This document shows, piece by piece, positions 9,429 through 50,429 of a stretch of 64,000 bases of DNA. The number at the start of each line of letters is the position of its first letter. The first letter of the stretch is position 1. The position numbers and the translations under genes are program-made. The notes beneath the pieces were generated by a model. The model was not told the origin of the DNA and ran no database searches. It worked only from the letters and a program-made list of their open reading frames with translations. The DNA is from Escherichia phage vB_EcoM_ESCO32. The stretch lies in the sequence record OM386658.1; one strand, 5' to 3'.

Positions 9429-9526
9429 ATAAGACTAAAATCACTTAAAAAGAACCGCTAGAGTTTGAAGGAGAAAACCATGAGCGAAAAGAGAAATTTT
9501 CTCTAGCGATTCCATTTAAATAATCT

Positions 9527-9601
9527 TGGAGCGAGTAACAGGACTTGAACCTGCACCTGGAGGGTGGAAACCTCATATGCTACCATTAACACTATACCCG
9601 C
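9527..9601 (-). tRNA. tRNA-Gly(TCC)
   Basis: Acceptor GCGGGTA/TACTCGC, anticodon loop TTTCCAC, T-arm GCAGG-TTCAAGT-CCTGT, CCA. Confidence 0.55.
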
Positions 9602-9656
9602 TTAACAATATTACTCTAACATATTATTAGCCCCTTTGTCAAGAGGCTTTTAATAT

Positions 9657-9980
9657 TTATTTTAAAATAGTAGATGCACCACGTCTATTTAGATATGCAA
9701 CCGTAAAGCTCAAATCACCTATTTCTTCAGGTTCCCACTGACCTTCTAAGCCATAACAAGAACAATGATATGCGTGTACTTCATAAAACAAAGATGTTTT
9801 CATATCATAGAAATAAACGTGAGATTCGCCTTCATAATATGCACAATCATAAGTGGCAGAAAGAATTACAATGTTATCCTTATCTAACTCTACTTCATAA
9901 TATCTTTCAACATCTTCAATATCATCAAAACCATCGAAAACATTGATATTAAAATATTTCTCTAACTCTTTTTCTGTCAC
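9657..9980 (-). CDS. hypothetical protein (Cys/Tyr-rich)
   Basis: ORF track; N-terminus trimmed to GTG after AAAGGAG because longer ORF overlaps tRNA-Thr. Confidence 0.35.
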   Translation of the reverse strand: MTEKELEKYFNINVFDGFDDIEDVERYYEVELDKDNIVILSATYDCAYYEGESHVYFYDMKTSLFYEVHAYHCSCYGLEGQWEPEEIGDLSFTVAYLNRRGASTILK

Positions 9981-10002
9981 ATACACTCCTTTAGAGTTAA
10001 AT

Positions 10003-10076
10003 TGGTGCTCCCACAAGGACTCGAACCCTGATAAGTTGCTTACAAGGCAACCGTAATAGCCGTTATACGATAGGAG
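10003..10076 (-). tRNA. tRNA-Thr(TGT)
   Basis: Acceptor GCTCCTA/TGGGAGC, anticodon arm GTTGC-CTTGTAA-GCAAC, T-arm CAGGG-TTCGAGT-CCTTG, CCA. Confidence 0.6.
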
Positions 10077-10156
10077 CAAAATATTTGCTTGGTAGGATTT
10101 GATACCTACAATTCTAGAAAATTCTAGAGGTTTCTATTAACTCTACAAGCACTATT

Positions 10157-10241
10157 TGGCGATGGATCAAGGATTTGAACCTTGCTAGAACTTTCGTTCA
10201 CGGATTAACAGTCCGTCGCCCAACCACTAGGCCAATCCATC
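10157..10241 (-). tRNA. tRNA-Asn(GTT)-like with extra long variable arm (atypical)
   Basis: Anticodon arm ACGGA-CTGTTAA-TCCGT (Asn-like), then GAAC-GAAA-GTTC extra hairpin, T-arm CAAGG-TTCAAAT-CCTTG, acceptor GATGGAT/ATCCATC, CCA. Confidence 0.4.
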
Positions 10242-10248
10242 TTTAATT

Positions 10249-10335
10249 TGGTGCAGGTAGTTGGACTCGAACCAACGAAGCCCCGAAGGGCAGGAGATTT
10301 ACAGTCTCCAGCAATTGCCGCTATGCGATACCTAC
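10249..10335 (-). tRNA. tRNA-Tyr(GTA), type II
   Basis: Acceptor GTAGGTA/TACCTGC, anticodon arm GGAGA-CTGTAAA-TCTCC, long variable arm, T-arm GTTGG-TTCGAGT-CCAAC, CCA. Confidence 0.6.
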
Positions 10336-10340
10336 GTGTT

Positions 10341-10416
10341 TGGTACATCGTGAAGGATTCGAACCTTCGACCTTGGAGTTAAAAGCCCCTTGCTCTACCA
10401 ACTAAGCTAACGATGT
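10341..10416 (-). tRNA. tRNA-Lys(TTT)
   Basis: Acceptor ACATCGT/ACGATGT, D-arm GCTT-AGTTGGTA-GAGC, anticodon loop CTTTTAA, T-arm GAAGG-TTCGAAT-CCTTC, CCA. Confidence 0.65.
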
Positions 10417-10586
10417 ATAAATTATCTTTAAAATAGCCAGTGTTCGCACCACTGACTATGAGGTATCGGTAAGATGGTGGGGGCCATCTGCCGAAAGTCT
10501 ACTCTATTAAAGTAAGATGGTTGCAGCCATCCTTCCAAAAAGTTACACCAAGCAACTAAGAGTAACAAGCTACATTAAAGATAACT

Positions 10587-10672
10587 TGGCGGTAGATGTA
10601 GGACTTGAACCTACACGCCGTTTCCGACGACAGTTTAGCAAACTGTTGTGGCTACCATTTCACCAATCTACC
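10587..10672 (-). tRNA. tRNA-Ser(GCT), type II
   Basis: Acceptor GGTAGAT/ATCTACC, anticodon arm ACAGT-TTGCTAA-ACTGT, long variable arm, T-arm GTAGG-TTCAAGT-CCTAC, CCA. Confidence 0.6.
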
Positions 10673-10680
10673 GTTCTTAA

Positions 10681-10833
10681 TTATTCAAAACAACCGGAAT
10701 CTTTTTGTTCTGTTTTTACCATACGAATATTCTTACCATCTTCAGATTGTTGAAGATTAGAATACTCATAAACAACTTTATTATTTACAATCTTAACTCC
10801 GGTAACAACCTGTCCAATAGTTTTATAATTCAT
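10681..10833 (-). CDS. hypothetical small protein (about 50 aa)
   Basis: ORF track trimmed to internal ATG (MNYKTIGQ...) preceded by AGGAGC; sits between tRNA genes. Confidence 0.3.
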   Translation of the reverse strand: MNYKTIGQVVTGVKIVNNKVVYEYSNLQQSEDGKNIRMVKTEQKDSGCFE

Positions 10834-10851
10834 AAAGCTCCTAAGAGAATT

Positions 10852-10941
10852 TGGAGGAAGATAATGGAGTCGAACCATCACCGTATCGCTACAATGGGCC
10901 AGGGTTCAAACCTGGTTGCGCACCGCTGCGCCCTACCTTCC
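10852..10941 (-). tRNA. tRNA-Ser(TGA), type II
   Basis: Acceptor GGAAGGT/ATCTTCC, anticodon arm CCAGG-TTTGAAC-CCTGG, long variable arm, T-arm GATGG-TTCGACT-CCATT, CCA. Confidence 0.55.
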
Positions 10942-11004
10942 TGTTACCATACTTTAAATCTAACATAAAACTATCTTGCTTGTCAAGTAGTTTTTAAAAC
11001 TTTT

Positions 11005-11086
11005 TGGCCGGGGTGACAGGATTCGAACCTGCATACTCCAATTACTCGGTTAACGCCTGATTAGAAGTCAGGTGAGATACACCCCG
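11005..11086 (-). tRNA. tRNA-Arg(TCT)-like element with atypical architecture
   Basis: Acceptor CGGGGTG/CACCCCG, anticodon arm CCTGA-CTTCTAA-TCAGG, T-arm GCAGG-TTCGAAT-CCTGT, CCA; but only 5 nt where the D-arm should be and a 23-nt segment between anticodon and T arms. Confidence 0.35.
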
Positions 11087-11267
11087 TTTTCATAATGACT
11101 ATAACAAAAAACTAAGTAAATGTCAAGATATTTTTTACTAAAATTACTATTTAAATTGAAGCCTAGTTATGGAATCGAACCATATTTCGTATTTAGTTAG
11201 ACAAAGCGGTCTAACATATTTTTCAGGCTTTGATGGCCTCGGAATTACCAAATACCCTACTAGGTGT

Positions 11268-11353
11268 TGGTGCAAGTGGAGGGATTCGAACCCTCAAGCA
11301 TTTAAGCGTTGCGTTTTAAGCACAATGTGTATCACCAATTCCACCACACTTGC
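11268..11353 (-). tRNA. tRNA-Leu(TAA), type II
   Basis: Acceptor GCAAGTG/CACTTGC, anticodon arm TTGTG-CTTAAAA-CGCAA, long variable arm, T-arm GAGGG-TTCGAAT-CCCTC, CCA. Confidence 0.6.
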
Positions 11354-11384
11354 ATATAGGAGATGCATAGCACCTCCTTTTAAA

Positions 11385-11460
11385 TGGTGGTTCCCCAGGG
11401 TTACAATCCCTGCCCTCGACACTTATGAGGTGTGCGCTCTCGTCAGTGAGCTATGGAACC
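11385..11460 (-). tRNA. tRNA (CAT anticodon; Met or Ile2) with non-canonical T-loop
   Basis: Acceptor GGTTCCA/GGGAACC, D-arm GCTC-ACTGACGA-GAGC, anticodon loop CTCATAA, T-arm CAGGG-ATTGTAA-CCCTG (no TTC), CCA. Confidence 0.45.
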
Positions 11461-12205: not shown

Positions 12206-13939
12206 TTAGTCAACCTGGATGGTTCCCATAGTACGAAGAACCTCTACATCAACACGGTTGCGGATATCAGTAAATGTTTCATCACGTCCTTCTACTTGTG
12301 GTGTAATAACCGTACCATCCCTGAAGATAACTTTTAACTCATTGTCTTCATCTTGGATATCTTTAAAAGAAAGATTATCCACAAGAGAAAGTTTACCGTT
12401 TGTATCCTTAACAACCTTAATAAAACCTTTTGCAGAGCGTTTACCAGGATCAGTTTTAGGCTCCTTACTTACCAAAATTTCGTGTTCACCGATGATACTA
12501 CCTGTTGCTTTAACAGCAAAACCAAAAGTATCTCGTGTATTGAACTGATAAGTATAACTACCAACACCAAATACAATATTGGAAGCTGCAAAACCTTTCT
12601 TCTTCAGTCGGCGTAAGATCTCGTGTTCTCGTTCAACAGTAATAGAATCACCATAAATCATACCGATGTGCTGATCAAGAACCTTGTAGCCTTTTCGGTT
12701 GATAGTACCACCAAACACTTCCCAAAGGATTTGAATAGAACCTACTGCTTCACAATAAGGAATCTCATAAGTTTCATCAATACAATCAGCAACACTGCAA
12801 TCCTGAAGAACATTGTAATACTTATTAACATCAGCCAAATGAACTACTTCAGTGGCTGTAGCAATACCATTATTTAAAAGGTCTTCATAGTTATCAAAAG
12901 ATTCAACATTGTATCCTGCAACAACTTTAACCGGATCTCCTGAATCTGGACGAATAACAAGACGACCATTTCGTGACATAATGGACTCTTTCAATTCTAC
13001 CAGAATGCGAGTCAAGACAGCCCAGTAATCATAAGAATCTGCTACATATGAACAAAAACCTTCTGGAACAATTTCTTCAATATAGCGGCGAAGAAACTCT
13101 TTCTCTGCTACATAACGAAGCCCATCAACATCATCTTTAAGATGTGGGAAATGTTTCTTCAGATCTTCAACAATAGCTCCAATGTTAGTCGTTGCTACTG
13201 AATGTTCTGTTGCCGGAATAGAACCTGCAACAAATTGATCATAATCAATACCATAGTAATCATGCACAGTTTCAATAGCCAGAATATTATCTGTTCCTGT
13301 GAAAGATGCCAAATGAGCGATACCACTCTTATAACCATCTTCGATATTGCTTAAGCCACGTAGACTAAAGTCATGACACTGGAAATTAACGTGATCAATG
13401 TTATCACACGTTGCCATCGCATACGCCATAGCGATACGCTTATACTGAAAAGCTGCTGTGGCATTAGTCATTGTCTTCCAAGTTTCATCTGACAAGAGTG
13501 TTTCCACATAGTTAGTTAACCAAAAGAATTTTTCTAAAGTGTTATGCACAGTAAACACAGGAACACCAATAGGACACAAAACACCTTCTGGCAGAGATCG
13601 AACTTCTAGCGGAAGATAACCTAAGTCGTGCAATTCTCCCCAACATTCAGCAGAAGGAGCAGAAGCACCTAATGCATTTTTAGACATACGGTAAAATTTA
13701 TTTACTGCTGCACTACGAGACATTTTAAAGAAGCTATCCCACATAGTTACAAGAGCATCAGTAACTGCTCGACGAATACCTAAAACAATTACACCACGTG
13801 CTTCACGATCTGCATAGTGTGCAAAGTTTTTATCATTACGAGGAGTTAAATTAGAGAAAATGAGTTTTGTATTTTGGTTGTACATCTGCTTGTGACCAGG
13901 CTTATACCAATCAGTAGCAAAAGGTGCAAAAATATTCAT
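12206..13939 (-). CDS. nicotinamide phosphoribosyltransferase-like enzyme (NAMPT family; Namat-type of phage NAD+ reconstitution pathway)
   Basis: 577 aa, NAMPT-like length and composition; immediately downstream of PRPP-synthetase-like gene, the arrangement described for phage NARP1. Confidence 0.75.
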   Translation of the reverse strand: MNIFAPFATDWYKPGHKQMYNQNTKLIFSNLTPRNDKNFAHYADREARGVIVLGIRRAVTDALVTMWDSFFKMSRSAAVNKFYRMSKNALGASAPSAECWGELHDLGYLPLEVRSLPEGVLCPIGVPVFTVHNTLEKFFWLTNYVETLLSDETWKTMTNATAAFQYKRIAMAYAMATCDNIDHVNFQCHDFSLRGLSNIEDGYKSGIAHLASFTGTDNILAIETVHDYYGIDYDQFVAGSIPATEHSVATTNIGAIVEDLKKHFPHLKDDVDGLRYVAEKEFLRRYIEEIVPEGFCSYVADSYDYWAVLTRILVELKESIMSRNGRLVIRPDSGDPVKVVAGYNVESFDNYEDLLNNGIATATEVVHLADVNKYYNVLQDCSVADCIDETYEIPYCEAVGSIQILWEVFGGTINRKGYKVLDQHIGMIYGDSITVEREHEILRRLKKKGFAASNIVFGVGSYTYQFNTRDTFGFAVKATGSIIGEHEILVSKEPKTDPGKRSAKGFIKVVKDTNGKLSLVDNLSFKDIQDEDNELKVIFRDGTVITPQVEGRDETFTDIRNRVDVEVLRTMGTIQVD

Positions 13940-14010: not shown

Positions 14011-14904
14011 TTAAAAATTCCACACGTATGGAGATACAATTTGTTGTTGCAAATCTGACTGATTCTTAACAAGAACACCGGAATCTTCTTGGATGTTATC
14101 TTCCCACACATTAAGAGAATGAATGCAGTCAAAGTGCTCACTTAACTCTTTAAGACCTTTAGAAAAGATACCGTGTGTAACATATAACTCAATCTTACCT
14201 GCGTTACGAGCACGTAGCACTTTAGCCAATTCAATAAAAGTTCTACCGCCGTCACAGATATCATCTACGATCATCAGGTTACGCTTATTGAAATCCTGTA
14301 CAGAAATGTCTGTACGAACAATAGCACCTGTTGCAGTATCTCTAACCTTCTCTGCACAGAACACATCTAAAGACATTTTCTTAGATAATTTAAATATTTT
14401 CTTAAGAGCACCACCATCAGGACTAACAAGAGCAAAATTCTCCATACGTAACTTCCACTTTAAAGTTTCGTAAGCAATCTCTTCTTGAGGTATTACACAG
14501 AGTCTGTCAAACACTGCTGGAGTAACATCACTATGTGGATCAGCAACGATAACACGTGAGAAATTTAATGAATTAATTATAGAAGCAAATGCTTTAACTC
14601 CGAATGCTTCCCCAGGTTCACACACTCTGTCTTGTCGTGCATATGGCACATACAACATGAGCAAATCAACACAATATGGTTTATGATATAGCATATTGTC
14701 CAATGCATTCTTAGTCATAACCAAAGTCATCAAGTCTTTAGCAGATCTTACTTCTAAAGAGAGTAAGATTCTGTCTGTAGCATGATTGAAACCTGATAGA
14801 TTCGTGTCTAGTTGAACATGTTGTTCTCCACCAGAGAACGTAAAGACTTTAACGTCTACATCAGTAACATAACAGTCAACACCATGTAGAATACTAACTT
14901 TCAT
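14011..14904 (-). CDS. ribose-phosphate pyrophosphokinase-like enzyme (Prs family; Adps-type of phage NAD+ reconstitution pathway)
   Basis: 297 aa; Prs-like motifs VSPDGGALKK and MIVDDICDGGRT (PRPP-binding loop); adjacent to NAMPT-like gene. Confidence 0.75.
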   Translation of the reverse strand: MKVSILHGVDCYVTDVDVKVFTFSGGEQHVQLDTNLSGFNHATDRILLSLEVRSAKDLMTLVMTKNALDNMLYHKPYCVDLLMLYVPYARQDRVCEPGEAFGVKAFASIINSLNFSRVIVADPHSDVTPAVFDRLCVIPQEEIAYETLKWKLRMENFALVSPDGGALKKIFKLSKKMSLDVFCAEKVRDTATGAIVRTDISVQDFNKRNLMIVDDICDGGRTFIELAKVLRARNAGKIELYVTHGIFSKGLKELSEHFDCIHSLNVWEDNIQEDSGVLVKNQSDLQQQIVSPYVWNF

Positions 14905-16757: not shown

Positions 16758-16948
16758 TGTTCCTTATTTATTCAGGTAAAGCCAAATACATGCAAGGTGT
16801 AAAGCGTGTAGAAGTAGTAGATACTGTAACTATAGGAAAATCCTTTATTCTTTATCTGTTTTATGTCAATGGAGAAAGATTTGCTGTTTCTAAGCAATTG
16901 GTAGATAAAGGTAAAACTTGGAAAGAAGAGAAACAGGAAGGGGGTTGA
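16757..16948 (+). CDS. hypothetical protein
   Basis: ORF track. Confidence 0.3.
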   Translation: MFLIYSGKAKYMQGVKRVEVVDTVTIGKSFILYLFYVNGERFAVSKQLVDKGKTWKEEKQEGG

Positions 16949-17292
16949 TAGTGGCTAAAATTCTTTGGTTAGACGATTTAAGAGATCCTAAAGATTATGG
17001 TTATGAGGATGCCATTTGGTTAAAATCTTTTGGGGATTGGTCATCTTTTGTTTCAGATGAAGATAATTTCAATAATATCTCAGAAATACACTTCGATAAT
17101 GATCTTGGGGAAGATCAAGAAGGCTATCATGCGTTCTTAGATGTAGAATGTATGTTGTACGCTGGTGAATGGGATGCTCTTAAAACTATCTATGTTCATA
17201 CATCAAATCCTTCTGCTGCTGGTAAATATATGTTAGCTAAGGAAAATTTTATTGCATCCTATGGTGTTGAAATTAAACGTGTTAACTATTAA
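16918..17292 (+). CDS. hypothetical protein
   Basis: ORF track; true start may be downstream. Confidence 0.3.
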   Translation: MERRETGRGLIVAKILWLDDLRDPKDYGYEDAIWLKSFGDWSSFVSDEDNFNNISEIHFDNDLGEDQEGYHAFLDVECMLYAGEWDALKTIYVHTSNPSAAGKYMLAKENFIASYGVEIKRVNY

Positions 17293-17447
17293 GTAGGTAT
17301 TATGCATTACTCAGTCTGGTCAGAGCAAGAAGAGGATGAAGGGCATTTTATCTATAGAGAGGAAGAAAATTGGAGCGATACGAGTAATGATCTTTTACTT
17401 CCTGATTACAGTTTTTTCGCTGATAGACTAAAAGAGTATGGAGAAAA

Positions 17448-17810
17448 TTGATGTGCGCTACTAATCAACATGATATTTGTTACCAACCTCTCACTTGGAT
17501 TGGTGAGGATCACTATGCTCAACGTGTTATAGTCTGCGCTGCGAACAAGTATATTCTTAACAATGGCGAAGAGTTAATTATTCCTTGTGTTAGGCATGCA
17601 AATCCTGTACTATCTGCACAACTTAATGTTTTAAAAGATGCAGGATTGATCGATAAACTGTTTTGCTTACCTGATAATCAAGGGTTTATTGATCAGTATT
17701 ATAACTGGTGGAGTCGCAAAGATGCTTATGTCATTGCAGATAACGCCAAACAAATTAACTACGAAAGAAATGGTCACAACAGTGAACTATTCAGCGAGGG
17801 ATTATACTAA
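17448..17810 (+). CDS. hypothetical protein (Cys-containing)
   Basis: ORF track. Confidence 0.3.
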   Translation: MMCATNQHDICYQPLTWIGEDHYAQRVIVCAANKYILNNGEELIIPCVRHANPVLSAQLNVLKDAGLIDKLFCLPDNQGFIDQYYNWWSRKDAYVIADNAKQINYERNGHNSELFSEGLY

Positions 17811-18361
17811 TGTTTATTACAAGTGATTTGCATTTTATGCACAAACGTATCCGAGAGTTTGCTCCTGAATATCGCCCGTGGGAAGATATGGAGCATATGA
17901 CAGAAGCACTGATCGAAGCATGGAATAAATGTGCCACAACACCAGGAGTAAAGATGTACCATCTTGGGGACTTCTGTTTCGGGACTGAAGAAGATACCCG
18001 TAAGATTGCTTCCCGTCTCCAAGGGGATATTACTTACTGTGTTGGGAACCATGATTACAGTAAACACAGAAAAGTGCTTGCAGAGTATGGAGAAGTTGTG
18101 TATTATGACGAAGTGAAATATCAGAAGCTGTTCTTCGTCTTAAGTCATTACCCTATGGCTGCCTGGAATAAACAAGGGCATGGATCAATCATGCTACATG
18201 GACACTCTCACGGATCATTTCCTGATCATTTGTATGGGAAAATGTTGGATGTTGGTTGGGATGCACACGGGAAAATCTTGCATTTTGACGAAATCATCTC
18301 TATTATGGATAAGCGTGATATTATTGTTGTAGATCATCATAAGATAATCAAAGGAGATTAA
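17810..18361 (+). CDS. calcineurin-like metallophosphoesterase (putative RNA-end phosphatase of repair cassette)
   Basis: Motifs SDLHFMH, HLGDFCFG, GNHDY, HGHSH characteristic of metallophosphoesterases; directly upstream of RNA ligase and kinase. Confidence 0.6.
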   Translation: MFITSDLHFMHKRIREFAPEYRPWEDMEHMTEALIEAWNKCATTPGVKMYHLGDFCFGTEEDTRKIASRLQGDITYCVGNHDYSKHRKVLAEYGEVVYYDEVKYQKLFFVLSHYPMAAWNKQGHGSIMLHGHSHGSFPDHLYGKMLDVGWDAHGKILHFDEIISIMDKRDIIVVDHHKIIKGD

Positions 18362-18362
18362 T

Positions 18363-19295
18363 GTGGCTAAGTTCAATTGTGATGACCTGATTGCAAAAGG
18401 TTTAGTGCATAAAAAAGAAGTTAAGTCTGGAGAGTATGCTGGTCTTGCTGTACTTAAATACAAAAACAATGTATTCTGGGATAACTTGTGGAACGTTGAC
18501 AAACGACTTTTAGATTGTCGTGGGTTGGTTGTTGACTCAGAAGATAATATTGTTATTTGGCCTTTTACTAAAATCTTTAATCGTTTTGAGAATGGTACAG
18601 ATCTTCCAGGAGATGAATTTGTAGATGCTGTCCGTAAAGTAAATGGTTTTATGGCATCTGTAGGTGTGTACAAAGGGCAACTTGTTGTATCAACAACAGG
18701 GAGCCTAGAGTCAGACTTTGCAACTATTGCCAAGAACCGTATTGTTTCCGAGTGTGATGACATAGAGTATTTCATTAAGTGGACAGAAAGTGCAAAAGCA
18801 ACTTTCCTTTTTGAAATCTGTGATCCTTCTGATCCACATGTTGTCGAAGAAGAACCAGGCGCATACTTAATTGGAGCAAGAATTCAAAATCTTGATGGGA
18901 CAAGTTTCATGTTACCTGAAGGTGTTCTTGATGGGATTGCATCTATTACAAAGTTTAAACGTCCTGAAGTTTATCCGATGATTAAATTTTCAGATGTTGT
19001 TGAAATGTCTAAACATTGTAAACACGAAGGGTTTGTTGTTCGTGAAACAAACTACCCGTTTAACTTACTGTTAAAGATTAAGTCACCATACTATCTTGCT
19101 AAAAAATTCCTTATGCGTGGTGGCAATAAGAAGTGGGATATGATTTGGGACAACCCAAACAATGCTAAACAAATTGTTGACGAAGAATATTATACTTTGC
19201 TAGAATGGCTTCGAAACAACTTTACTAAGACTCAATGGGCTGCTTTAGATCCACAAGAGCGACGTAAAGAAATAGAAAACTTCTTTGGAGGCTAA
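18363..19295 (+). CDS. RNA ligase, T4 Rnl1-like
   Basis: GTG start; blocks DCRGLVV, WPFTKIFNRFEN, RKVNGFMAS (motif I with Asn in place of Asp), EGFVVR, LLLKIKSPYY align by eye with T4 RnlA motifs. Confidence 0.65.
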   Translation: MAKFNCDDLIAKGLVHKKEVKSGEYAGLAVLKYKNNVFWDNLWNVDKRLLDCRGLVVDSEDNIVIWPFTKIFNRFENGTDLPGDEFVDAVRKVNGFMASVGVYKGQLVVSTTGSLESDFATIAKNRIVSECDDIEYFIKWTESAKATFLFEICDPSDPHVVEEEPGAYLIGARIQNLDGTSFMLPEGVLDGIASITKFKRPEVYPMIKFSDVVEMSKHCKHEGFVVRETNYPFNLLLKIKSPYYLAKKFLMRGGNKKWDMIWDNPNNAKQIVDEEYYTLLEWLRNNFTKTQWAALDPQERRKEIENFFGG

Positions 19296-19700
19296 ATGAA
19301 ACAACTTATCATCTTACGTGGTGTTTCAGGTGCAGGTAAATCTACAGTAGCAGAAATTATTTCTGAAGGTTATTGGCCTATCTGTGAGGCAGATCAATAT
19401 CATTACACAGAAAGTGGTGTTTACGATTGGAAGCCAGAGAATGTAGGTAAAGCACACGCATGGTGTCAGAGTATTGTTCGTGATGCTATGGCATCTAATA
19501 TTAAAAAGATTATTGTCTCTAACACTTCAACCACAGAGAAAGAACTTAAACCTTATTTAACTCTTGCTGAAGAGTTTGGTTATCAAGTTATCTCTTTAGT
19601 AGTTGAAAATAGGCACGGTAACGACTCAATTCATGAGGTTCCACAACATATCCGTGATCAGCAAGAGAAACGTCTTCGCAGTTCACTTAAGCTACAATAA
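19296..19700 (+). CDS. polynucleotide 5'-kinase (T4 Pnk kinase-domain-like, P-loop)
   Basis: Walker A GVSGAGKST; VVSNTSTTEKELKPYLTLAEEFGYQV resembles T4 Pnk kinase domain. Confidence 0.6.
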   Translation: MKQLIILRGVSGAGKSTVAEIISEGYWPICEADQYHYTESGVYDWKPENVGKAHAWCQSIVRDAMASNIKKIIVSNTSTTEKELKPYLTLAEEFGYQVISLVVENRHGNDSIHEVPQHIRDQQEKRLRSSLKLQ

Positions 19701-19709
19701 GGAGAATTT

Positions 19710-20030
19710 ATGGAAATTTATTCTGGTAAAGGTAAGTATTTTACAGTAGTCGATGATGGTGAAATTATTATTTATCGCTACGGAAGTGAGTGGAGGAACG
19801 AAACAGGAGACGGCTATATCTTATCTTTGCTGCATTTGATTGATAGTCTTATGGAAGACCTTGAAGAAACAAAACGTTCATATGATGATCAAGTAGATTC
19901 ATTAGAAAACATTATTTCAGATCTAAATGAAGAAGTTTCTTGTTTGAATGAACAAGTTTCAGAGTTAACACTGGAATGTGAAGATTTAAATGATGTTATT
20001 GCAGATTTAAATGAACGTCTTAAGGATTAA
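19710..20030 (+). CDS. hypothetical acidic coiled-coil protein
   Basis: ORF track; heptad-like LNEEVSCLNEQVSELTLECEDLNDVIADLNERL. Confidence 0.3.
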   Translation: MEIYSGKGKYFTVVDDGEIIIYRYGSEWRNETGDGYILSLLHLIDSLMEDLEETKRSYDDQVDSLENIISDLNEEVSCLNEQVSELTLECEDLNDVIADLNERLKD

Positions 20031-20033
20031 TAT

Positions 20034-20258
20034 ATGAGCACAGCTATCTATGTTAAAGGTGTAAGCGAAGATCAACAAATGTTATTTTCATTTGGTGAGA
20101 ATACTGAAATGGAAGATATGTTTAATGATATCCTTGATGCCCTTTCTTCGGAAGGGTTCACAATGATTACATACTTTATGGCAACATCTTCTGAATATGT
20201 TGATACAGATCTTGAAGATTTGATGGAAGAAATTCAAACTCTTGTGTATAATTGGTAA
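20034..20258 (+). CDS. hypothetical acidic protein
   Basis: ORF track. Confidence 0.3.
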   Translation: MSTAIYVKGVSEDQQMLFSFGENTEMEDMFNDILDALSSEGFTMITYFMATSSEYVDTDLEDLMEEIQTLVYNW

Positions 20259-20455
20259 GGTTAACTATGACATTTATTGAAGAACTAACGAGAATTGCAA
20301 ACGCGCCTAACAGTAGTGAAGATCCTTACTTTATGGTGGATGATTACACTGGTGGTAATATTGATGATGCCTATGAACTAGGCAGACTACACGGTGAAAT
20401 TGAAATGGCTAAATGGGTTCTTTCGCAACTGGAGGTTAAAGATGAAACAAACTAA
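20252..20455 (+). CDS. hypothetical protein
   Basis: ORF track. Confidence 0.3.
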   Translation: MVRLTMTFIEELTRIANAPNSSEDPYFMVDDYTGGNIDDAYELGRLHGEIEMAKWVLSQLEVKDETN

Positions 20456-21557
20456 TCCTACATTATATGGTAAAACTTCTACAGGTAAAATTAGACAGTG
20501 GTCAGTCTATACCGAAGGTAGTGTTGTAACTGTTGCTCATGGTCAATTAGGTGGAAAGATCACTAGCAAATCTTATACGGCAGAACCTAAAAATATTGGT
20601 CGCTCAAATGAAACAACAGCAGAAGAACAAGCTGAAATAGAAGCTCTTGCCAAATGGACAAAGCAACTTAAGAATGGGTACTATAAAACAAAAGAGGAAG
20701 CTGAAAACCATGTTCCTTCCACACCCATGAAATGTCAGGATTATAAAGATTATGCTGATCGTGTTTTGTTCCCTGGTTATGCACAATATAAATTGAATGG
20801 TCTACGTTCAATGATTAACATGCAAGGTGAATGTTTATCTAAAGCTGGGGAGGTATATAAACTTCCACCTCACTGGGAAGAAATTCCAACCTTCATTAAA
20901 GAAGTAGTTGGTCATCCTCTTGACGGTGAAGTTTTTGCTGGTTTGGGTGTCCTTAGCCTTCAACAAATTAATAGTGCGTGGAAAAAGCATAATGCTAACA
21001 CACCACTTCTTAAATACTATGTATATGATGTTCCTGTGGCATCTGTACCATTTGAGAAGAGGGTTCAAGTTTTGGCTGCTCTAAAAGAAGTTGTTGAAGA
21101 TAAAGGTTTAGATGAACTTATTTGTGTAGTACATACAGAGTACATTGAAAACCAAGAACAGTTTGATGCTTTCTATGCAAAAGCTCTACGTGAGAAAGCG
21201 GAAGGTGTGGTGTATCGTAACGCAAAAGGTGTTTACGAATTCGATAAACGTTCTTATGATGTTATTAAACGTAAACCACGGCAGACGCTTGAAGTTAAAG
21301 TGGTAAGTGCAAAGCGTGATAAAAATGGTGACGGGGTATTGACAGGAGAGATGGAAAATGGTAAAGTAGTCGAATTCCTGATGCGTAAGGATTCAGATGA
21401 AACCATTAACTATCGTAAAGAAGAAAATGCTTTGACACTTATTGGTCAATTTGTTGAAATAGAGTACGAAGAATTTTCAGACGAAGGTATTCCTACCAAG
21501 CCTGTTGGGGTACGTGTACGTAAGATGATTCCAGGTACTTGGGAACCAGCAGAGTAA
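20442..21557 (+). CDS. ATP-dependent DNA ligase (T7-like)
   Basis: ATG after GGAGG; motif I KLNGLR (Asn replaces canonical Asp), motif III LDGEVF, motif IV EGVVYR, motif V DVIKRK, C-terminal PVGVRVRK similar to T7 ligase. Confidence 0.7.
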   Translation: MKQTNPTLYGKTSTGKIRQWSVYTEGSVVTVAHGQLGGKITSKSYTAEPKNIGRSNETTAEEQAEIEALAKWTKQLKNGYYKTKEEAENHVPSTPMKCQDYKDYADRVLFPGYAQYKLNGLRSMINMQGECLSKAGEVYKLPPHWEEIPTFIKEVVGHPLDGEVFAGLGVLSLQQINSAWKKHNANTPLLKYYVYDVPVASVPFEKRVQVLAALKEVVEDKGLDELICVVHTEYIENQEQFDAFYAKALREKAEGVVYRNAKGVYEFDKRSYDVIKRKPRQTLEVKVVSAKRDKNGDGVLTGEMENGKVVEFLMRKDSDETINYRKEENALTLIGQFVEIEYEEFSDEGIPTKPVGVRVRKMIPGTWEPAE

Positions 21558-21565
21558 GAGGTAAT

Positions 21566-21745
21566 ATGGTATTAGTAACAGTTCTTATGATGTTAATTGC
21601 TATTGCAATTATAATGTTAGCCTCGTTTCCAGTGGACAAATGGTACTGCAATTTTTGTAGATTTGTTGTTTTCCTCTGTGCTGGGGCGTATATGGGCGAA
21701 TCGGTAGTTCGCATTAGTGTTTTGTTAGAACAATATTTTAAATAA
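21566..21745 (+). CDS. small membrane protein
   Basis: Internal ATG after AGAGG; hydrophobic MVLVTVLMMLIAIAIIMLASF. Confidence 0.3.
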   Translation: MVLVTVLMMLIAIAIIMLASFPVDKWYCNFCRFVVFLCAGAYMGESVVRISVLLEQYFK

Positions 21746-21754
21746 GGAGAAACA

Positions 21755-22477
21755 ATGATCGAGAATTTTTTCAAACAAGTAAAAGTGGACAATAGCTTCT
21801 TTATCAAAGCTGCCGATCAAATTGTTGCTTGGAATGCTAAGGCACGTGGTGGAGTAACCCCAGAATTTACTCAAGAGATGTTTGAAGCTCAACTTTCTTT
21901 TGTACGAGAAGAACTTAAAGAGTTTCAAGCAGCAGCACAGGAAAATGATCACGTTGAATTACTTGATGCAGCAGCAGATATTTTTGTGGTAGCATCCTAC
22001 CTGGCATTTATGTTCTTTGGTAAAGAAGGTGTTGATAAAGCTCTGGAAATGCCAACAGGAGATGTTCTGGCAGAGAACATTTACGATGTTATCATTGAAT
22101 TTGATAAAATGGTAGAAAATGACTTGCAATTTGCCTTAATGTCTCTTACACTTACCCGTATGGCACGAGATACTTTGGTGCGTTCTGTTTATAACGAGAA
22201 GAAGGTTATGCGTGAAGTGTTGAATAGCAATGAGTCCAAGTATCCTACCAAGAAGCAACTCCTGGCTATTTGGGAAACTAAGGATATTATTGAAGCTCTT
22301 GAAAAAGAGTGCGATGCTATCGAGATGCGAAGCAAAGATCGTGCAGAAGGTTCTTATACTGGGGTACATGCTGTATATAACGAAGTTCAAAAGGTATACG
22401 TATTCTTTGATGACAAAGGTAAAATTATGAAACCATCTACCTTTGTTAAACCTAATATCGCAGCAATCATTGCTTAA
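21755..22477 (+). CDS. MazG-like all-alpha nucleoside triphosphate pyrophosphohydrolase (putative)
   Basis: EExxE...D-type motif: VREELKEFQAAAQEN...ELLDAAADIFVVASYLA. Confidence 0.5.
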   Translation: MIENFFKQVKVDNSFFIKAADQIVAWNAKARGGVTPEFTQEMFEAQLSFVREELKEFQAAAQENDHVELLDAAADIFVVASYLAFMFFGKEGVDKALEMPTGDVLAENIYDVIIEFDKMVENDLQFALMSLTLTRMARDTLVRSVYNEKKVMREVLNSNESKYPTKKQLLAIWETKDIIEALEKECDAIEMRSKDRAEGSYTGVHAVYNEVQKVYVFFDDKGKIMKPSTFVKPNIAAIIA

Positions 22478-22482
22478 GAAAT

Positions 22483-22503
22483 AAAGCCCCTTCGGGGGCT
22501 TAT
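22483..22503 (+). terminator. weak stem-loop (GCCCC-TTCG-GGGGC) after MazG-like gene
   Basis: Hairpin seen in sequence; poor T-tract. Confidence 0.3.
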
Positions 22504-22513
22504 TGGAGGTATT

Positions 22514-22802: not shown

Positions 22803-23687
22803 ATGTTTGCTAAAAATTTCAAATCTTGCGTAACCCTGATTTCTGGTGATGGTCTGTCTATTTCCGCACTGAACACAGTAACAGACAAACCGCTGGATTT
22901 TGTTGTGGCACAGGGTCAACAAGCGCATACCATTGGTCTTGTTCGTTTTGAAGATGATGGTTCCTATGTAAAAGTGTTCTCTGGTTTAGAGGTTATTAAA
23001 GTAGGGCAATCTGTTAAGAAAGTTAACAAGAAAAAAGTTAAACGCATTCTTAATGAAAAACTCAAAGAGATGGAACAAGAGTTTATTGCTGCAAATCCTA
23101 CTAAAGAATTCTTCTTGGACAAAGAAAGTAAGAAAGCAATTGAGGCTGATATCGTGTTTTCTCTGCTCCCAGAAACAGAGGCAGATGATTTCTATAACTA
23201 TGTTGTTGTAGACACTGAAAACAGTATTACCTACGTTCTTAATGGTACTAAGAAAATTAGTGAAGATATTGCTGTGTTTCTTCGTGAGGTGTTGGGTACT
23301 TTCCCAGTCCTGCCGTTTAGTGTACACGAAGAGGCCATTATTAAAGGTTTTGATACCATCTTAGAAGAACATGAGGCTGAACGACTGACCCTTGGTAATT
23401 ATATTAAACTTGAAGATTCTGAAGGTGTGGTTGTATGGAGTAAAGAATCCCTTTATGAATCTCGTGCAGTAGAACTTATGGAAGATGGTAAGCACGTTGT
23501 TGCCATTGGCCTGGAATATGACGGTTTCGTTAACTTTATTGTTGATAAAGAATTTAAGTTGAGTGGTATTAAATTCCCTAAATACTTTAACGATGAAGAA
23601 GGATCTTTTGAAGCATCTGTCCTTCTGTGCTTTAATGAAATCCGTGGTATTATGCAAGACCTTATTAAGTCAACTATTCAAAAATAA
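22803..23687 (+). CDS. hypothetical protein (294 aa)
   Basis: ORF track; RBS GAGGAG upstream. Confidence 0.35.
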   Translation: MFAKNFKSCVTLISGDGLSISALNTVTDKPLDFVVAQGQQAHTIGLVRFEDDGSYVKVFSGLEVIKVGQSVKKVNKKKVKRILNEKLKEMEQEFIAANPTKEFFLDKESKKAIEADIVFSLLPETEADDFYNYVVVDTENSITYVLNGTKKISEDIAVFLREVLGTFPVLPFSVHEEAIIKGFDTILEEHEAERLTLGNYIKLEDSEGVVVWSKESLYESRAVELMEDGKHVVAIGLEYDGFVNFIVDKEFKLSGIKFPKYFNDEEGSFEASVLLCFNEIRGIMQDLIKSTIQK

Positions 23688-34770: not shown

Positions 34771-34968
34771 ATGATGCTAGATCAACTGATCAATGCTCCT
34801 CGCGTAACAGTAAGTCCAAAAACATTTGCATCACTTTTAGAAGATGCTAAAGAGGTTTATAACTTTACTGAAGAAGAGCTTCCTGTTCCTGTTGAAAAAG
34901 GTTCCAGATGGTTGTTTTATGAAGGTATTATTTTTACTGAAGGGAATAATTGGAAGGAGACTAAATGA
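34771..34968 (+). CDS. hypothetical protein
   Basis: Internal ATG after AAGGAGG. Confidence 0.3.
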   Translation: MMLDQLINAPRVTVSPKTFASLLEDAKEVYNFTEEELPVPVEKGSRWLFYEGIIFTEGNNWKETK

Positions 34969-35954: not shown

Positions 35955-35962
35955 GGAGGAGT

Positions 35963-36832: not shown

Positions 36833-36844
36833 AGGGGGAATTAA

Positions 36845-37399
36845 ATGATTCAAGCAACAAAAATCGAAGATTTGTTGATCATTCAACCTGACGTTTACGG
36901 AGATGAACGTGGCTTTTTCTTAGAAAGTTTTAATCAGGCTTTATATGATCAATACATAGGTAAACAAAACTTTGTCCAAGATAACCATTCACGTTCTATT
37001 CGAGGAGTTCTACGTGGGCTTCATTTTCAAAAGAAAAACCCACAAGGGAAGTTAGTACGTTGTGTTCGTGGTGAAGTTTATGATGTTGCTGTAGATATTA
37101 GGGTTGGTAGTCCAACATTTGGAGAATGGGTAGGTGTTCTCTTATCTGAAAAGAATAAAACACAATTTTGGATTCCTCCTGGTTTCGCTCATGGCTTTGT
37201 TGTGATTAGTGACATTGCTGATTTTGAATATAAATGTACAGAATATTACGATCCGACTTCAGAGTGTAGTCTTGCGTGGAATGATCCAGATATCAATATT
37301 GATTGGGGTTTTGATTTAATCTTTAATGATATTAATTTTAAACCTATCTTGTCACAAAAAGATCAGGAAGCCAAAACACTAAAGGAGATCATATTTTGA
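36845..37399 (+). CDS. rmlC: dTDP-4-dehydrorhamnose 3,5-epimerase
   Basis: 184 aa cupin; DERGFFLE and HFQK motifs typical of RmlC. Confidence 0.8.
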   Translation: MIQATKIEDLLIIQPDVYGDERGFFLESFNQALYDQYIGKQNFVQDNHSRSIRGVLRGLHFQKKNPQGKLVRCVRGEVYDVAVDIRVGSPTFGEWVGVLLSEKNKTQFWIPPGFAHGFVVISDIADFEYKCTEYYDPTSECSLAWNDPDINIDWGFDLIFNDINFKPILSQKDQEAKTLKEIIF

Positions 37400-49616: not shown

Positions 49617-50429
49617 ATGCGAAGAGTAATTTTTGTTAGTGGCGCAGGTTTAAGTGCAGACAGTGGGATTCGAACGTTCCGAACAGACACAGATAGTGGT
49701 CGTGCCTTATGGGAAGAATATGACTTAGAAGAGGTCTGCGATATTGGAGCTTTCCAAGCAGGTTATCGTGTGAGAACATCTCCAGATCTTCCAGTGGTCG
49801 GTGGTGTAGACGAGAACGGTATGGACTTGTATGCCAAAACACACGAATTTTATAACAAAAGACGTGTTGAGCTTAAAGATGTACAACCTAATGCTGCACA
49901 TATTCAAATAGCAAGGTGGTTTAAGGAATATCCTAACCAAGTAGTAAACTTGACAACAAACGTTGATGACCTACTAGAGCGAGCAGGTGTAGACAGGGAT
50001 TCTGTTATTCACGTGCACGGATATCTTCCTGAAGTAGTTTACCGTATGCATCCTGGAGATTACAAAACACTGGTAGACATTGGTTACAATAGTATAAACA
50101 TAGATGATTATAACTGGGTGAAGCCTAATGTTGTATTTTTTGGTGAGGCTGCACCTTTGTATGCAGATATGGCTCACTTGTTTGATACTTTGACCATGCA
50201 AGATTTGGTTGTTGTAGTAGGATGTTCAAACCAAGTTATCAATTTTAATTGGGAATTATTCCCTGCACTTAATATGGGTACAAAAATGATCGTTGTTAAC
50301 CCAGGAATTAATTACGAAGAAACTCTTCTTTACGAAGATAGAGGAGTCTTTGTTTATAGAGAAAAGGCAGCAGATGCTTTTAGCAATCCTGCTTTCATAA
50401 AAATGATAGAAGATCATTTGACTAAGTAA
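49617..50429 (+). CDS. SIR2-family (sirtuin-like) NAD+-dependent enzyme lacking zinc-ribbon module
   Basis: GAGLSADSGIRTFR NAD-binding signature, QPNAAHIQIA, TTNVDDLL, catalytic HVHG, VVFFGE, VVVGCS; no CxxC pairs. Confidence 0.7.
   Translation: MRRVIFVSGAGLSADSGIRTFRTDTDSGRALWEEYDLEEVCDIGAFQAGYRVRTSPDLPVVGGVDENGMDLYAKTHEFYNKRRVELKDVQPNAAHIQIARWFKEYPNQVVNLTTNVDDLLERAGVDRDSVIHVHGYLPEVVYRMHPGDYKTLVDIGYNSINIDDYNWVKPNVVFFGEAAPLYADMAHLFDTLTMQDLVVVVGCSNQVINFNWELFPALNMGTKMIVVNPGINYEETLLYEDRGVFVYREKAADAFSNPAFIKMIEDHLTK

Follow-up and report, generated by a model that had tools for sequence, protein, structure and literature searches.

A three-gene cassette of coliphage ESCO32 predicted to heal and seal RNA ends

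Three consecutive genes of Escherichia phage vB_EcoM_ESCO32 encode a metallophosphoesterase (MPE), an RNA ligase and a polynucleotide kinase. Together they probably form a split module for healing and sealing RNA ends. The phage would express it to undo RNA cuts made by host defense ribonucleases, and it most likely mends tRNAs cut by bacterial defense nucleases. The genes lie in the 64,000-nucleotide stretch of DNA analyzed here (the window; sequence record OM386658.1). All have intact catalytic motifs and family matches far beyond chance, they are tightly linked, and fusions of such genes occur; we infer which substrates the enzymes use, what chemistry the MPE performs and what the biological target is. 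The cassette is real, widespread, already annotated and predicted in print. No experimental study of any of its enzymes was found in the literature.

The source of the window is a phAPEC8-like coliphage (Stephanstirmvirinae), and annotations of the cassette are already present in its relatives. A 2.85 kb segment carrying these genes is 97–98.5% identical across dozens of sequenced coliphages, in which the three products are called 'putative phosphoesterase', 'RNA ligase' and 'polynucleotide kinase'. The features are collected in Table 1. The sequence-only reading had described three consecutive, tightly spaced genes, and its coordinates agree exactly with the list of open reading frames. The genes are co-directional. 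The upstream gene and the MPE gene overlap by 1 nt in TAATG (17808-17812). The MPE/ligase junction is TAA-t-GTG (18359-18365) with AAAGGAGA just before it, and the ligase/kinase junction is TAAATG (19293-19298), just preceded by GGAGG. The same reading placed the cassette next to the tRNA array. The array is nearby, but it is not adjacent, lying 6.3 kb away on the other strand with two NAD+-salvage-type genes and about nine small ORFs in between. Of 40 ligase loci sampled, 25 have at least one tRNA gene no more than 10 kb from the ligase, and 15 have four or more.

Table 1. Cassette genes and other features of the window discussed in the text
Feature	Position	Strand	Basis or remark
Array of 15 tRNA genes	8713..11460	-	ARAGORN; context only, outside operon
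cREC (cyclic-phosphate-processing receiver-like) protein	16918..17292	+	Pfam cREC_REC PF20274, 3.9e-13
Two ORFs of unassigned function (49 aa and 120 aa, phrog_839)	17302..17810	+	phrog_839, 1.3e-46
Binuclear MPE, aq_1665/1xm7 clade, 183 aa	17810..18361	+	phrog_547; profile against 1xm7; AF2 fold
Short Rnl1-family ATP-dependent RNA ligase, 310 aa	18363..19295	+	Pfam RNA_lig_T4_1; T4 Rnl1 profile match; GTG start, AGGAG Shine-Dalgarno
Stand-alone Pnk-clade P-loop kinase, 134 aa, putative RNA 5'-OH kinase	19296..19700	+	AAA_33, phrog_505 and Pnk profile matches
ATP-dependent DNA ligase	20394-21557		0.7 kb downstream of kinase
MazG-like nucleotide pyrophosphohydrolase	21755..22477	+	Pfam PRA-PH, 3.2e-7; phrog_671, 5.9e-28
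Terminator-like hairpin	22484-22509		after MazG-like gene
Second MPE, lambda-phosphatase/PrpA type	44388-45134		weak match to bacterial Pnkp
rV5-type sirtuin	49617..50429	+	Pfam SIR2, 3e-22

The first protein has the complete set of binuclear MPE motifs (D6-x-H8, G53-D54, G79-N80-H81-D82, H113 and G131-H132-x-H134), all invariant or nearly so; D6, H8, D54, N80, H81, H113, H132 and H134 are invariant in the family. DLHFMH, GDFCFG and GNHD, the motifs from which a calcineurin-type enzyme had been recognized, are found at aa 6-11, 53-58 and 79-82, and with every metal-binding motif intact that assignment stands. The protein matches phrog_547 at 8.5e-55, scores 20.6 bits against Pfam Metallophos_2, which is below threshold, and has no NCBIfam match. 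The sole PDB match of its family profile is Aquifex aeolicus aq_1665 (PDB 1xm7, 3.6e-21), its closest solved relative, which is also the top fold match (TM 0.69) of the AF2 model (pLDDT 92.6). Mre11, LpxH, the MJ0936 phosphodiesterase and a P. putida nuclease follow. Using Foldseek, lambda phosphatase matched the model at E = 0.05 only, and the CthPnkp phosphatase was absent among the matches. Judged by sequence and model, the MPE is thus placed outside the lambda-phosphatase/CthPnkp/PrpA/ApaH clade. Since aq_1665 is a structural-genomics protein without assigned function, it offers no functional clue. The MPE is the weak link of the heal-and-seal reading, and it is from the gene context that we propose a 3'-phosphatase role for it, healing 2',3'-cyclic-phosphate or 3'-phosphate ends. 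There is precedent for 2',3'-cyclic phosphodiesterase/phosphatase activity in MPE-type enzymes (PMC2190708, PMC4411300), and two of these, CthPnkp and lambda phosphatase, hydrolyze RNA-type 2',3'-cyclic phosphates (PMC2190708).

The ligase scores 53 bits against Pfam RNA_lig_T4_1 (PF09511; 5.4e-14, cutoff 28.3), and its family profile finds the homologous adenylyltransferase domain of T4 Rnl1 (2c5u) at 8.9e-12 with motifs I, III, IV and V aligned, which bears out the earlier description of a T4 Rnl1-like enzyme. The lysine nucleophile is K92 of motif I. Motifs I (K92-V-N-G), III (F150-E151), IV (E222-G223) and V (K238-x-K240) are invariant in the family. The motif I Asp has become an invariant Asn, as in Trl1, giving KxNG in place of the KEDG of T4 Rnl1. 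R53 and K70 are likewise invariant and align to T4 Rnl1; the roles of the corresponding residues in T4 Rnl1 and Trl1 have been described (PMC6379707). The ligase has 310 aa, compared with 374 in T4 Rnl1, and the sequence alignment of the two ends at T4 residue 249. In the AF2 model (pLDDT 89.3) motif V is followed by a helical stretch of about 70 residues (242-309), which is approximately half as large as the T4 C-domain. Given that this short module has no sequence match to the tRNA-specificity domain of T4 Rnl1, tRNA specificity of the ligase is an assumption. It is predicted to seal RNA 3'-OH/5'-PO4 ends. A homolog is present in 748 phage records, and the family comprises 472 clusters at E<=1e-30. 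PHROG 562 and many GenBank records bear the label 'RNA ligase and tail fiber protein attachment catalyst', which would make the enzyme mainly a T4 gp63-like tail-fiber attachment factor. We give this hardly any credence. The label is carried over from T4 gp63. The gene is situated in an early or nucleotide-metabolism region, it is linked to a kinase or, elsewhere, fused to one, and every adenylyltransferase residue is conserved.

The kinase scores 39.8 bits against Pfam AAA_33 (6.9e-10, cutoff 27) and matches phrog_505 (polynucleotide kinase) at 5.8e-9. The best solved relatives of its family profile are Pnkp1 (4xrp, 2.9e-6), T4 Pnk (7.8e-5), the kinase domain of CthPnkp (1e-3) and PSTK (1e-3), in agreement with the P-loop 5'-kinase of T4 Pnk type that had been proposed. 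The P-loop GVSGAGKS (aa 9-16, including K15 and S16) is invariant, as is D33, which aligns within the 'RDDYR' segment of T4 Pnk to D35, the residue that we take to be the general-base Asp. The acceptor-binding Arg of the DxxR motif, presumably R38 in T4 Pnk and R41 in CthPnkp, is not present in the alignment of the kinase to T4 Pnk; a nearly invariant H36 stands at that position. N76 stands at the position of T4 D85. Both replacements count against the heal-and-seal reading. R106, in an invariant ENRHG segment, is a candidate for the lid Arg contacting the NTP phosphates, which we assume to be R126 in T4 Pnk; the register of the alignment is ambiguous here. All 134 aa are kinase domain, with no HAD/DxDxT 3'-phosphatase domain.

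The linkage of the three genes was counted in 80 ligase-seeded loci from viral contigs (36-98% identity). The kinase is no more than 3 kb from the ligase in 70 of these and the MPE in 61, the latter on either side, and the gene orders include MPE-LIG-KIN, KIN-LIG-MPE and divergent arrangements. The genes are also fused. A kinase-ligase fusion is encoded at 11 ligase loci, and the best 150 ligase cluster representatives include eight KIN-LIG and three LIG-KIN proteins together with about 20 fusions of 700-812 aa, of which those scanned against Pfam are AAA_33-Metallophos-RNA_lig_T4_1. In kinase-seeded loci the MPE-kinase pair stands beside a cassette-type ligase in 17 cases and beside a PF09414-type RNA ligase in 11, the MPE directly adjoining the kinase even with this other ligase family. 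Three-domain proteins are found in cyanobacteria as single chromosomal polypeptides of 710-800 aa, in contrast to the separate proteins of the cassette. Their ligase domains belong to the same family (31-35% identity; 32% in Leptolyngbya sp. PCC 7375, locus L265, where RtcB lies 1.6 kb away), and the kinase domain is related to the cassette kinase (95.5% by hhalign). The same three activities are predicted. Their MPE is of Pnkp/lambda-phosphatase type (partial match to TIGR04075, 4e-53), unlike that of the cassette. We know of no characterization of these trifunctional proteins. The coupling of healing to sealing that had been read from the ESCO32 genes gains support from linkage maintained despite shuffled order, fusions in both orders, association with a second RNA ligase family and the cyanobacterial proteins. 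Comparative genomics thus gives the heal-and-seal reading good support.

The position of the MPE within the module is where these data can be read in another way. It is possible, if unlikely, that kinase and ligase alone make up the repair module and that the MPE is an independent enzyme of the same counter-defense island. The MPE could then act as a phosphodiesterase on nucleotide second messengers or on ADP-ribose derivatives, or it could be a nuclease, with 3' ends healed by the cREC protein, by the lambda-phosphatase-type MPE elsewhere in the window or by a host enzyme. Neither ligase nor kinase lies within 4 kb in 39 of 80 MPE-seeded loci, and these solitary MPEs have unrelated neighbors such as a cell-wall hydrolase, a DnaB-like helicase or a peptide deformylase. 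Two near relatives (L087 and L089) have kept the MPE and cREC without ligase and kinase, and the kinase-ligase fusion loci have no recognizable phosphatase nearby, and no MPE. The difference in clade from Pnkp and lambda phosphatase, and the presence in the window of an MPE closer to these, point the same way. Yet independence would not account readily for an MPE so often close to the ligase on either side, for one directly beside the kinase when the ligase is of another family, or for the architecturally equivalent kinase-MPE-ligase fusions and one Metallophos-ligase fusion (P0503). Moreover, the phosphatase known to be associated with NARP1 is not an MPE but a Macro-domain protein.

Processing of DNA ends has also to be weighed. 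T4 and mammalian PNKP enzymes are able to clean DNA nicks with 5'-OH and 3'-phosphate ends, and kinase and MPE might do so for the DNA ligase encoded just downstream. In 30 of the 80 loci such a ligase is found no more than 10 kb from the RNA ligase, and Mre11 and a ssDNA nuclease MPE are among the nearest fold matches that the MPE has next to aq_1665. However, only 17 of the 80 loci have the DNA ligase within 3 kb, and RNA ligases, of two families, are both the tightest partners of kinase and MPE and the fusion partners of the kinase. We regard this as very improbable.

The repair unit is wider than three genes, with cREC upstream, the MazG-like gene downstream and a remote sirtuin. The sequence-only reading had missed these, together with the published neighborhood type to which they belong (PMC9503650). 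That type is the sirtuin-centered predicted RNA-repair neighborhood of rV5/Mydo type described by Iyer, Burroughs, Anantharaman and Aravind in 2022 (PMC9503650). Its genes encode a T4-like tRNA ligase, cREC, a nucleotide kinase, a MazG pyrophosphatase and, in some cases, a calcineurin-like phosphoesterase (PMC9503650). All five are present in ESCO32 within 16918-22477 on one strand. The order MPE-ligase-kinase on a single strand differs from the divergent arrangement in phage FV3, and the sirtuin, coupled to the ligase in the rV5-type neighborhood, is outside it here. The cREC protein is 46% identical to the ligase-adjacent cREC of FV3; its annotated homolog begins at the GTG that corresponds to position 16951. 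Its function has been predicted (PMC7824862, PMC9503650), and it may act as an accessory by opening the cyclic phosphate. The 49-aa and 120-aa ORFs that separate cREC from the MPE are translationally coupled to the MPE, have no match in Pfam or NCBIfam and are confined to close relatives. The sirtuin is 49% identical to FV3 Sir2, which is 1.2 kb from the FV3 ligase. Sirtuins are ligase-adjacent in Vequintavirinae, whereas in ESCO32 the gene is 30 kb downstream of the cassette with no recognizable repair genes around it; it may be a remote accessory.

These neighbors, and the ligase itself, recall the yeast-type, NAD+-linked pathway of the Iyer/Aravind hypothesis. The cREC protein would open the cyclic phosphate to 3'-OH/2'-PO4, the kinase would phosphorylate the 5' end, and a Trl1-like KxNG ligase would require the 2'-PO4 for sealing. 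The phage sirtuin would then be the NAD+-dependent remover of the junction 2'-phosphate, as an analog of Tpt1/KptA, and MPE and MazG would process ADP-ribose-phosphate by-products. Fungal and plant Trl1 (LIG-KIN-CPD), which acts with Tpt1, shares with the cassette ligase KxNG in motif I and EGFVxR in motif IV (EGFVIR in Trl1-LIG; PMC6379707), and in both the ligase is physically coupled to a Pnk-clade kinase. Fungal Trl1-LIG and T4 Rnl1 tied at about 1e-12 as Foldseek matches of the ligase model, Trl1-LIG having the highest TM (0.70). cREC and a rV5-type sirtuin are encoded in the genome, NARP1-type NAD+-rebuilding genes are next door (in 42 of the 80 loci such genes lie 10 kb or less from the ligase), and the neighborhood type is the published one (PMC9503650). 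Nevertheless, cREC and sirtuin are each found with the ligase in no more than about 10-11 of the 80 loci, compared with 61-70 for MPE and kinase, and the ESCO32 sirtuin is distant. At the sequence level the ligase profile finds T4 Rnl1 and not Trl1, R227 of motif IV varies within the family, and there is no detectable counterpart of the Trl1 C-terminal module proposed to bind the 2'-PO4; nor does the cassette have the 2H CPD domain or Tpt1. We consider this pathway quite improbable. If true, it would create a direct link between RNA repair and the neighboring NAD+-rebuilding genes.

The preferred reading is that of a heal-and-seal module, and its steps would be the following. The MPE would hydrolyze a 2',3'-cyclic phosphate or 3'-phosphate to leave a 3'-OH, possibly helped in ESCO32 by the upstream cREC protein in opening the cyclic phosphate. 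The kinase would transfer the phosphate of an NTP to the 5'-OH. The ligase would adenylylate itself on K92, activate the 5'-phosphate as AppRNA and then seal the break. RNA-end clean-up was independently predicted for this type of neighborhood by Iyer et al. (PMC9503650).

The cassette follows the logic of the anti-PrrC pair T4 Pnkp and Rnl1, comprising a 5'-kinase of the same clade, a 3'-end phosphoesterase and an Rnl1-family ligase. The T4 repair genes are not known to be contiguous, unlike the three genes here. T4 Pnkp has a HAD (DxDxT) phosphatase fused to its kinase, and the contrast previously drawn with a separate calcineurin-like enzyme is correct; the use of such an enzyme is not new, given the bacterial Pnkp precedent (PMC2190708). 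Pnkp-Hen1 of Clostridium thermocellum and Pnkp1-Rnl-Hen1 of Capnocytophaga likewise bring together a kinase with a calcineurin-type metallophosphoesterase and an ATP-dependent RNA ligase, and among solved structures Pnkp1 matches the cassette kinase family best. They differ in that their MPE is of the lambda-phosphatase clade rather than the aq_1665 clade. The cassette ligase is Rnl1-like and not of the Pnkp ligase clade, and the cassette proteins are separate. No Hen1 2'-O-methyltransferase was seen among the window ORFs scanned.

Nucleases that cut tRNA or other RNA, such as PrrC, RloC, HEPN/Schlafen-type nucleases, colicin-like toxins and type III CRISPR accessories, are now regarded as a major arm of bacterial immunity. 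To our knowledge T4 Pnkp/Rnl1 is the only phage repair answer established experimentally. The cassette does not overturn current ideas, because its logic is the expected one. It is a predicted solution that differs from that of T4 and is much more widespread, and it occurs in easily handled coliphages, including phages of the BASEL collection. Its function bears on the role of the orphan aq_1665 metallophosphoesterase clade, on what constitutes a minimal Rnl1-type ligase, on the exchange of healing modules between ligase families, and on which host defenses are neutralized.

The cassette comprises a metallophosphoesterase (MPE) gene, a T4 Rnl1-family ligase gene and a Pnk-clade P-loop kinase gene. 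ORF calling confirmed the exact coordinates and strand of all three, and the motifs quoted in the sequence-only reading are present. The cassette is therefore real, and its interpretation as an RNA end-healing and sealing system is essentially right. The MPE gene starts at a TAATG junction, overlapping the gene upstream by 1 nt. The MPE–ligase junction is TAA-t-GTG with a AAAGGAGA Shine–Dalgarno sequence, and the ligase–kinase junction is TAAATG preceded by GGAGG. The cassette sits inside a co-directional gene block that begins near 15.3 kb, and a terminator-like hairpin (22484-22509) follows this block, 3' of the MazG-like gene. The two small genes before the MPE are translationally coupled to it and confined to close relatives; Pfam and NCBIfam scans of their products gave no match. 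The cassette had been placed next to the tRNA array. The array is indeed nearby, but it lies 6.3 kb away on the other strand, so that it does not adjoin.

Features of the locus and of a chromosomal relative
Feature	Position	Strand	Comment
tRNA array	8713-11460	-	15 genes
NAPRTase-family protein	12206-13939	-	577 aa; NARP1 pair member
Ribose-phosphate-diphosphokinase-like protein	14011-14904	-	297 aa; NARP1 pair member
cREC protein	16918-17292		upstream of cassette; PF20274 3.9e-13
49-aa ORF and 120-aa phrog_839 protein	17302-17810	+	between cREC and MPE
MPE	17810-18361	+	183 aa
Ligase	18363-19295	+	310 aa
Kinase	19296-19700	+	134 aa
ATP-dependent DNA ligase	20394-21557	+	0.7 kb downstream of kinase
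MazG-like pyrophosphohydrolase	21755-22477		downstream of cassette
RdgC-like protein	22803-23687	+	
RmlB, RmlA, RmlC, RmlD	34965-38226	+	dTDP-L-rhamnose pathway, complete, phage-borne; very strong Pfam matches
PhoH	39189-39941	+	
Serine recombinase	42595-43257	+	
Second MPE	44388-45134	+	PrpA/lambda Ser/Thr-phosphatase type, NF008516 4.9e-27
C5 cytosine DNA methyltransferase	47298-48287	+	
Sirtuin (SIR2 family)	49617-50429	+	orthologous; 49% identity to rV5/FV3 sirtuin
Trifunctional protein, Leptolyngbya sp. PCC 7375	L265 4768-6906		712 aa; AAA_33-Metallophos-RNA_lig_T4_1, chromosomal
RtcB ligase, Leptolyngbya sp. PCC 7375	L265 8508-9689		1.6 kb downstream of trifunctional protein

Dozens of ~146-kb E. 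coli myoviruses from the Stephanstirmvirinae (phAPEC8-like; Justusliebigvirus/Phapecoctavirus), such as phages arall, muut, EmilieFrey and ECGD1, share the 2.85 kb around the cassette at 97-98.5% identity. In their records the MPE gene is annotated 'putative phosphoesterase', the ligase gene 'RNA ligase' or sometimes 'RNA ligase/RNA repair', and the kinase gene either 'polynucleotide kinase' or 'ATPase'. Records labeled 'Campylobacter phage' (MG065639, MG065645, MG065656, MG065689 and others) are ~97% identical to the coliphages across the cassette, and these host labels look doubtful.

The best supported reading, and probably the correct one, is a three-step pathway for which T4 Pnkp/Rnl1 is the precedent. 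The MPE would convert 2',3'-cyclic-phosphate or 3'-phosphate ends to 3'-OH, possibly assisted by cREC, the cyclic-phosphate-processing receiver-like protein. The kinase would add a phosphate to the 5'-OH, and the ligase would close the break via K92-AMP and AppRNA. CthPnkp and lambda phosphatase (PMC2190708), and also Pnkp1-Rnl-Hen1 (PMC4411300), set the precedent for end healing by a phosphoesterase of the MPE type. That tRNA is the target is assumed, and plausible.

The assignment of an Rnl1-like RNA ligase is well founded. The protein scores 53 bits against Pfam RNA_lig_T4_1 (cutoff 28.3), and its family profile matches T4 Rnl1 (2c5u) in the PDB at 8.9e-12, spanning the adenylyltransferase domain; a single-sequence phmmer search of the PDB and an NCBIfam scan gave no match. 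Motifs I (K92-V-N-G), III (FE151), IV (E222-G223) and V (K238-I-K240) are family-invariant and aligned. So are R53 and K70, which correspond to T4 Rnl1 Arg54 and Lys75, residues touching the gamma-phosphate of ATP (PMC6379707). AF2 modeled the protein with confidence (pLDDT 89.3). With this model in Foldseek, fungal Trl1-LIG and T4 Rnl1 tie as best (~1e-12), followed by archaeal Rnl3 ligases, and the highest TM is 0.70, to Trl1-LIG-KIN. Motifs I (KxNG) and IV (EGFVxR) are Trl1-like and motif V is T4-like. Only ~70 helical residues follow motif V in the model, and these have no sequence match to the T4 Rnl1 C-domain in the family profile alignment, so the protein counts as a short Rnl1-like adenylyltransferase. 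The family contains 472 clusters of 50% identity at E<=1e-30, and homologues occur in 748 phage records with hosts including Escherichia, Pseudomonas, Vibrio, Streptomyces, Klebsiella and Acinetobacter.

The kinase matches Pfam AAA_33 (6.9e-10) and PHROG 505 'polynucleotide kinase' (5.8e-9). The best solved relatives of its family profile are RNA or polynucleotide kinases throughout: Pnkp1 (2.9e-6), from the Pnkp1-Rnl-Hen1 repair complex; T4 Pnk (7.8e-5), with an end-to-end alignment; the kinase domain of CthPnkp (1e-3); and PSTK. Within the family neither the P-loop nor D33 varies, and D33 aligns with T4 Pnk Asp35, the general base. A T4 Pnk-like P-loop kinase, as originally proposed, is upheld. 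H36 and N76 align with T4 Pnk R38 and D85, a genuine departure from that enzyme. The 134-aa protein has no phosphatase domain. Given the DNA ligase gene just downstream, the kinase and MPE might instead heal DNA nicks for that enzyme. Third in weight among the rivals, this seems very improbable beside the linkage and fusion to RNA ligases described below.

Assignment of the first gene as a calcineurin-type phosphoesterase also stands, within the aq_1665 clade. Every binuclear-site motif is invariant in the family, and AF2 predicts the fold with confidence (pLDDT 92.6). Among solved structures, only that of Aquifex aq_1665 (1xm7; profile 3.6e-21, TM 0.69), a protein without known function, is close. 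Mre11, LpxH, the MJ0936 phosphodiesterase and a P. putida nuclease MPE follow as fold matches; lambda phosphatase matches at just E=0.05, and the CthPnkp phosphatase was not found among the fold matches. An NCBIfam scan of the MPE gave no match. Profile, fold and NCBIfam comparisons thus all speak against membership of the lambda-phosphatase/CthPnkp clade, which we rejected. Because that clade is excluded and the closest relative is uncharacterized, we infer the end-healing role of the MPE from context and not from homology. Identity with the recently reported NARP1-associated phage phosphatase was also rejected; that enzyme is a Macro-domain protein. The second MPE of the window lies outside the cassette and belongs to a clade for which 2',3'-cyclic phosphodiesterase activity is proven. 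Its local match to bacterial Pnkp is weak (TIGR04075, 2e-6).

Linkage was scored in 80 viral-contig loci fetched for each of the ligase, kinase and MPE families and scanned with family HMMs; the loci are non-independent with redundancy retained, and the counts are indicative. Around ligases of 36-98% identity, a kinase was found within 3 kb in 70/80 loci and an MPE in 61/80. Gene orders were MPE-LIG-KIN (this phage and Aeromonas 2L372X), KIN-LIG-MPE, interrupted (PAK_P1) and divergent (FV3/rV5, of the Vequintavirinae). Set against this linkage, a gp63-like tail-fibre role, the last in weight of the rivals, is scarcely credible. Within 4 kb of 80 kinase seeds, an MPE was accompanied by the Rnl1-family cassette ligase in 17 loci, by a PF09414-type ligase, from a different RNA ligase family, in 11, and by neither in 14. 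Loci lacking an MPE had the cassette ligase alone (6), a PF09414-type ligase alone (2) or both (1), and 29 had neither MPE nor ligase. The PF09414-type ligases at L180 and L183 carry a PHA02142 OB domain. A kinase–MPE pair that stays put across a switch of ligase family is the pattern expected of a healing module.

The MPE-seeded loci were less uniform. Within 4 kb, 30/80 had both kinase and cassette ligase, with one further locus adding a PF09414-type ligase; kinase alone was found in four, cassette ligase alone in three and PF09414-type ligase alone in three. The remaining 39 had no such partner and unrelated genes as neighbors, although one of them (L099) has a short PF09414 ligase missed by the HMM. 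Two related ~150-kb phage contigs, L087 (8001-9881; MPE 91% identical) and L089 (59%), retain cREC, MPE, DNA ligase and MazG but have no RNA ligase or kinase gene. They are natural 'knock-outs' for ligase and kinase, useful in comparison. A kinase–ligase fusion of ~430 aa is encoded at 11 of the 80 ligase-seeded loci, and a Pfam scan next to the fusion genes recognized no phosphatase. The partnerless loci, L087/L089 and these fusion loci weaken the MPE link. That the MPE is an unrelated gene of the island is accordingly the weightiest rival, yet with 61/80 ligase loci holding an MPE we consider it unlikely, and favor its role in healing.

Fusions extend to bacteria. The top 150 ligase cluster representatives include 8 KIN-LIG, 3 LIG-KIN and one Metallophos-ligase protein, together with ~20 proteins of 700-812 aa; those Pfam-scanned are AAA_33-Metallophos-RNA_lig_T4_1. 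In chromosomal kinase/Pnkp-type-MPE/ligase proteins of Leptolyngbyaceae the C-terminus is the same ligase domain (31-35% identity), and hhalign relates the phage kinase family to the kinase domain of the Leptolyngbya fusion with 95.5% probability. By its domain content the 712-aa Leptolyngbya protein would be a Pnkp-like trifunctional enzyme with an Rnl1-type ligase domain; to our knowledge it is uncharacterized. Hen1 was not seen in the view around its gene. Cardiobacteriaceae MAG contigs encode a kinase–ligase fusion followed by an aq_1665-type MPE.

The repair unit is broader than three genes, and its neighborhood type is already published. The cREC domain is a predicted opener of 2',3'-cyclic phosphates (PMC7824862, PMC9503650), and Iyer et al. 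(2022) described precisely such a neighborhood in medium-sized phages, with Escherichia phage V5 and Proteus phage Mydo as prototypes, proposing NAD+-dependent RNA-end clean-up (PMC9503650). NCBIfam scans of cREC and the MazG-like protein gave no match. A sirtuin beside the cassette was sought and not found: in rV5/FV3 it adjoins the RNA ligase, whereas here 30 kb separate the two, and a Pfam scan of the ORFs flanking the sirtuin gave no matches. cREC and sirtuin lie near the ligase in just ~10-11/80 ligase-seeded loci, against 70 and 61 for kinase and MPE, so the conserved core is ligase, kinase and MPE, and the NAD+-linked layer is at best lineage-specific. The Trl1-like features of the ligase would suit a 2'-phosphate-dependent pathway linked to sirtuin and NAD+; with the sirtuin so distributed, this rival, second in weight, is improbable, and healing and sealing by the core remains preferred.

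Between tRNA array and cassette comes the NARP1 (Namat/Adps) gene pair. NARP1 rebuilds NAD+ from ADP-ribose and nicotinamide, countering NAD+-depleting defenses. Its genes occur within 10 kb of the ligase in 42/80 (NAMPT-like) and 35/80 (Adps-like) viral loci. The region, with tRNA array, NARP1-type genes and then repair genes, looks like a counter-defense island. A tRNA gene is present within 10 kb of the ligase in 25/40 sampled loci, and at least four in 15/40, counts that have no random-window baseline for comparison. Three phage contigs with ligase relatives (L054, L061, L076) have a tmRNA gene within ~6-8 kb. Suppressor-type tRNAs with CUA or UUA anticodons are found at L029, L036, L046 and L076, and may reflect stop-codon recoding.

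The cassette is not new as an idea, because its genes are annotated, the neighborhood class is published, and a bacterial repair system of kinase, calcineurin-type phosphoesterase and RNA ligase is known experimentally. Literature searches for the cassette or for Phapecoctavirus RNA ligases found no experimental study. The biochemical interest lies in what MPEs of the aq_1665-type clade do, in which substrates are preferred by a minimal Rnl1-type ligase whose motifs are Trl1-like, and in the host nucleases that are countered.
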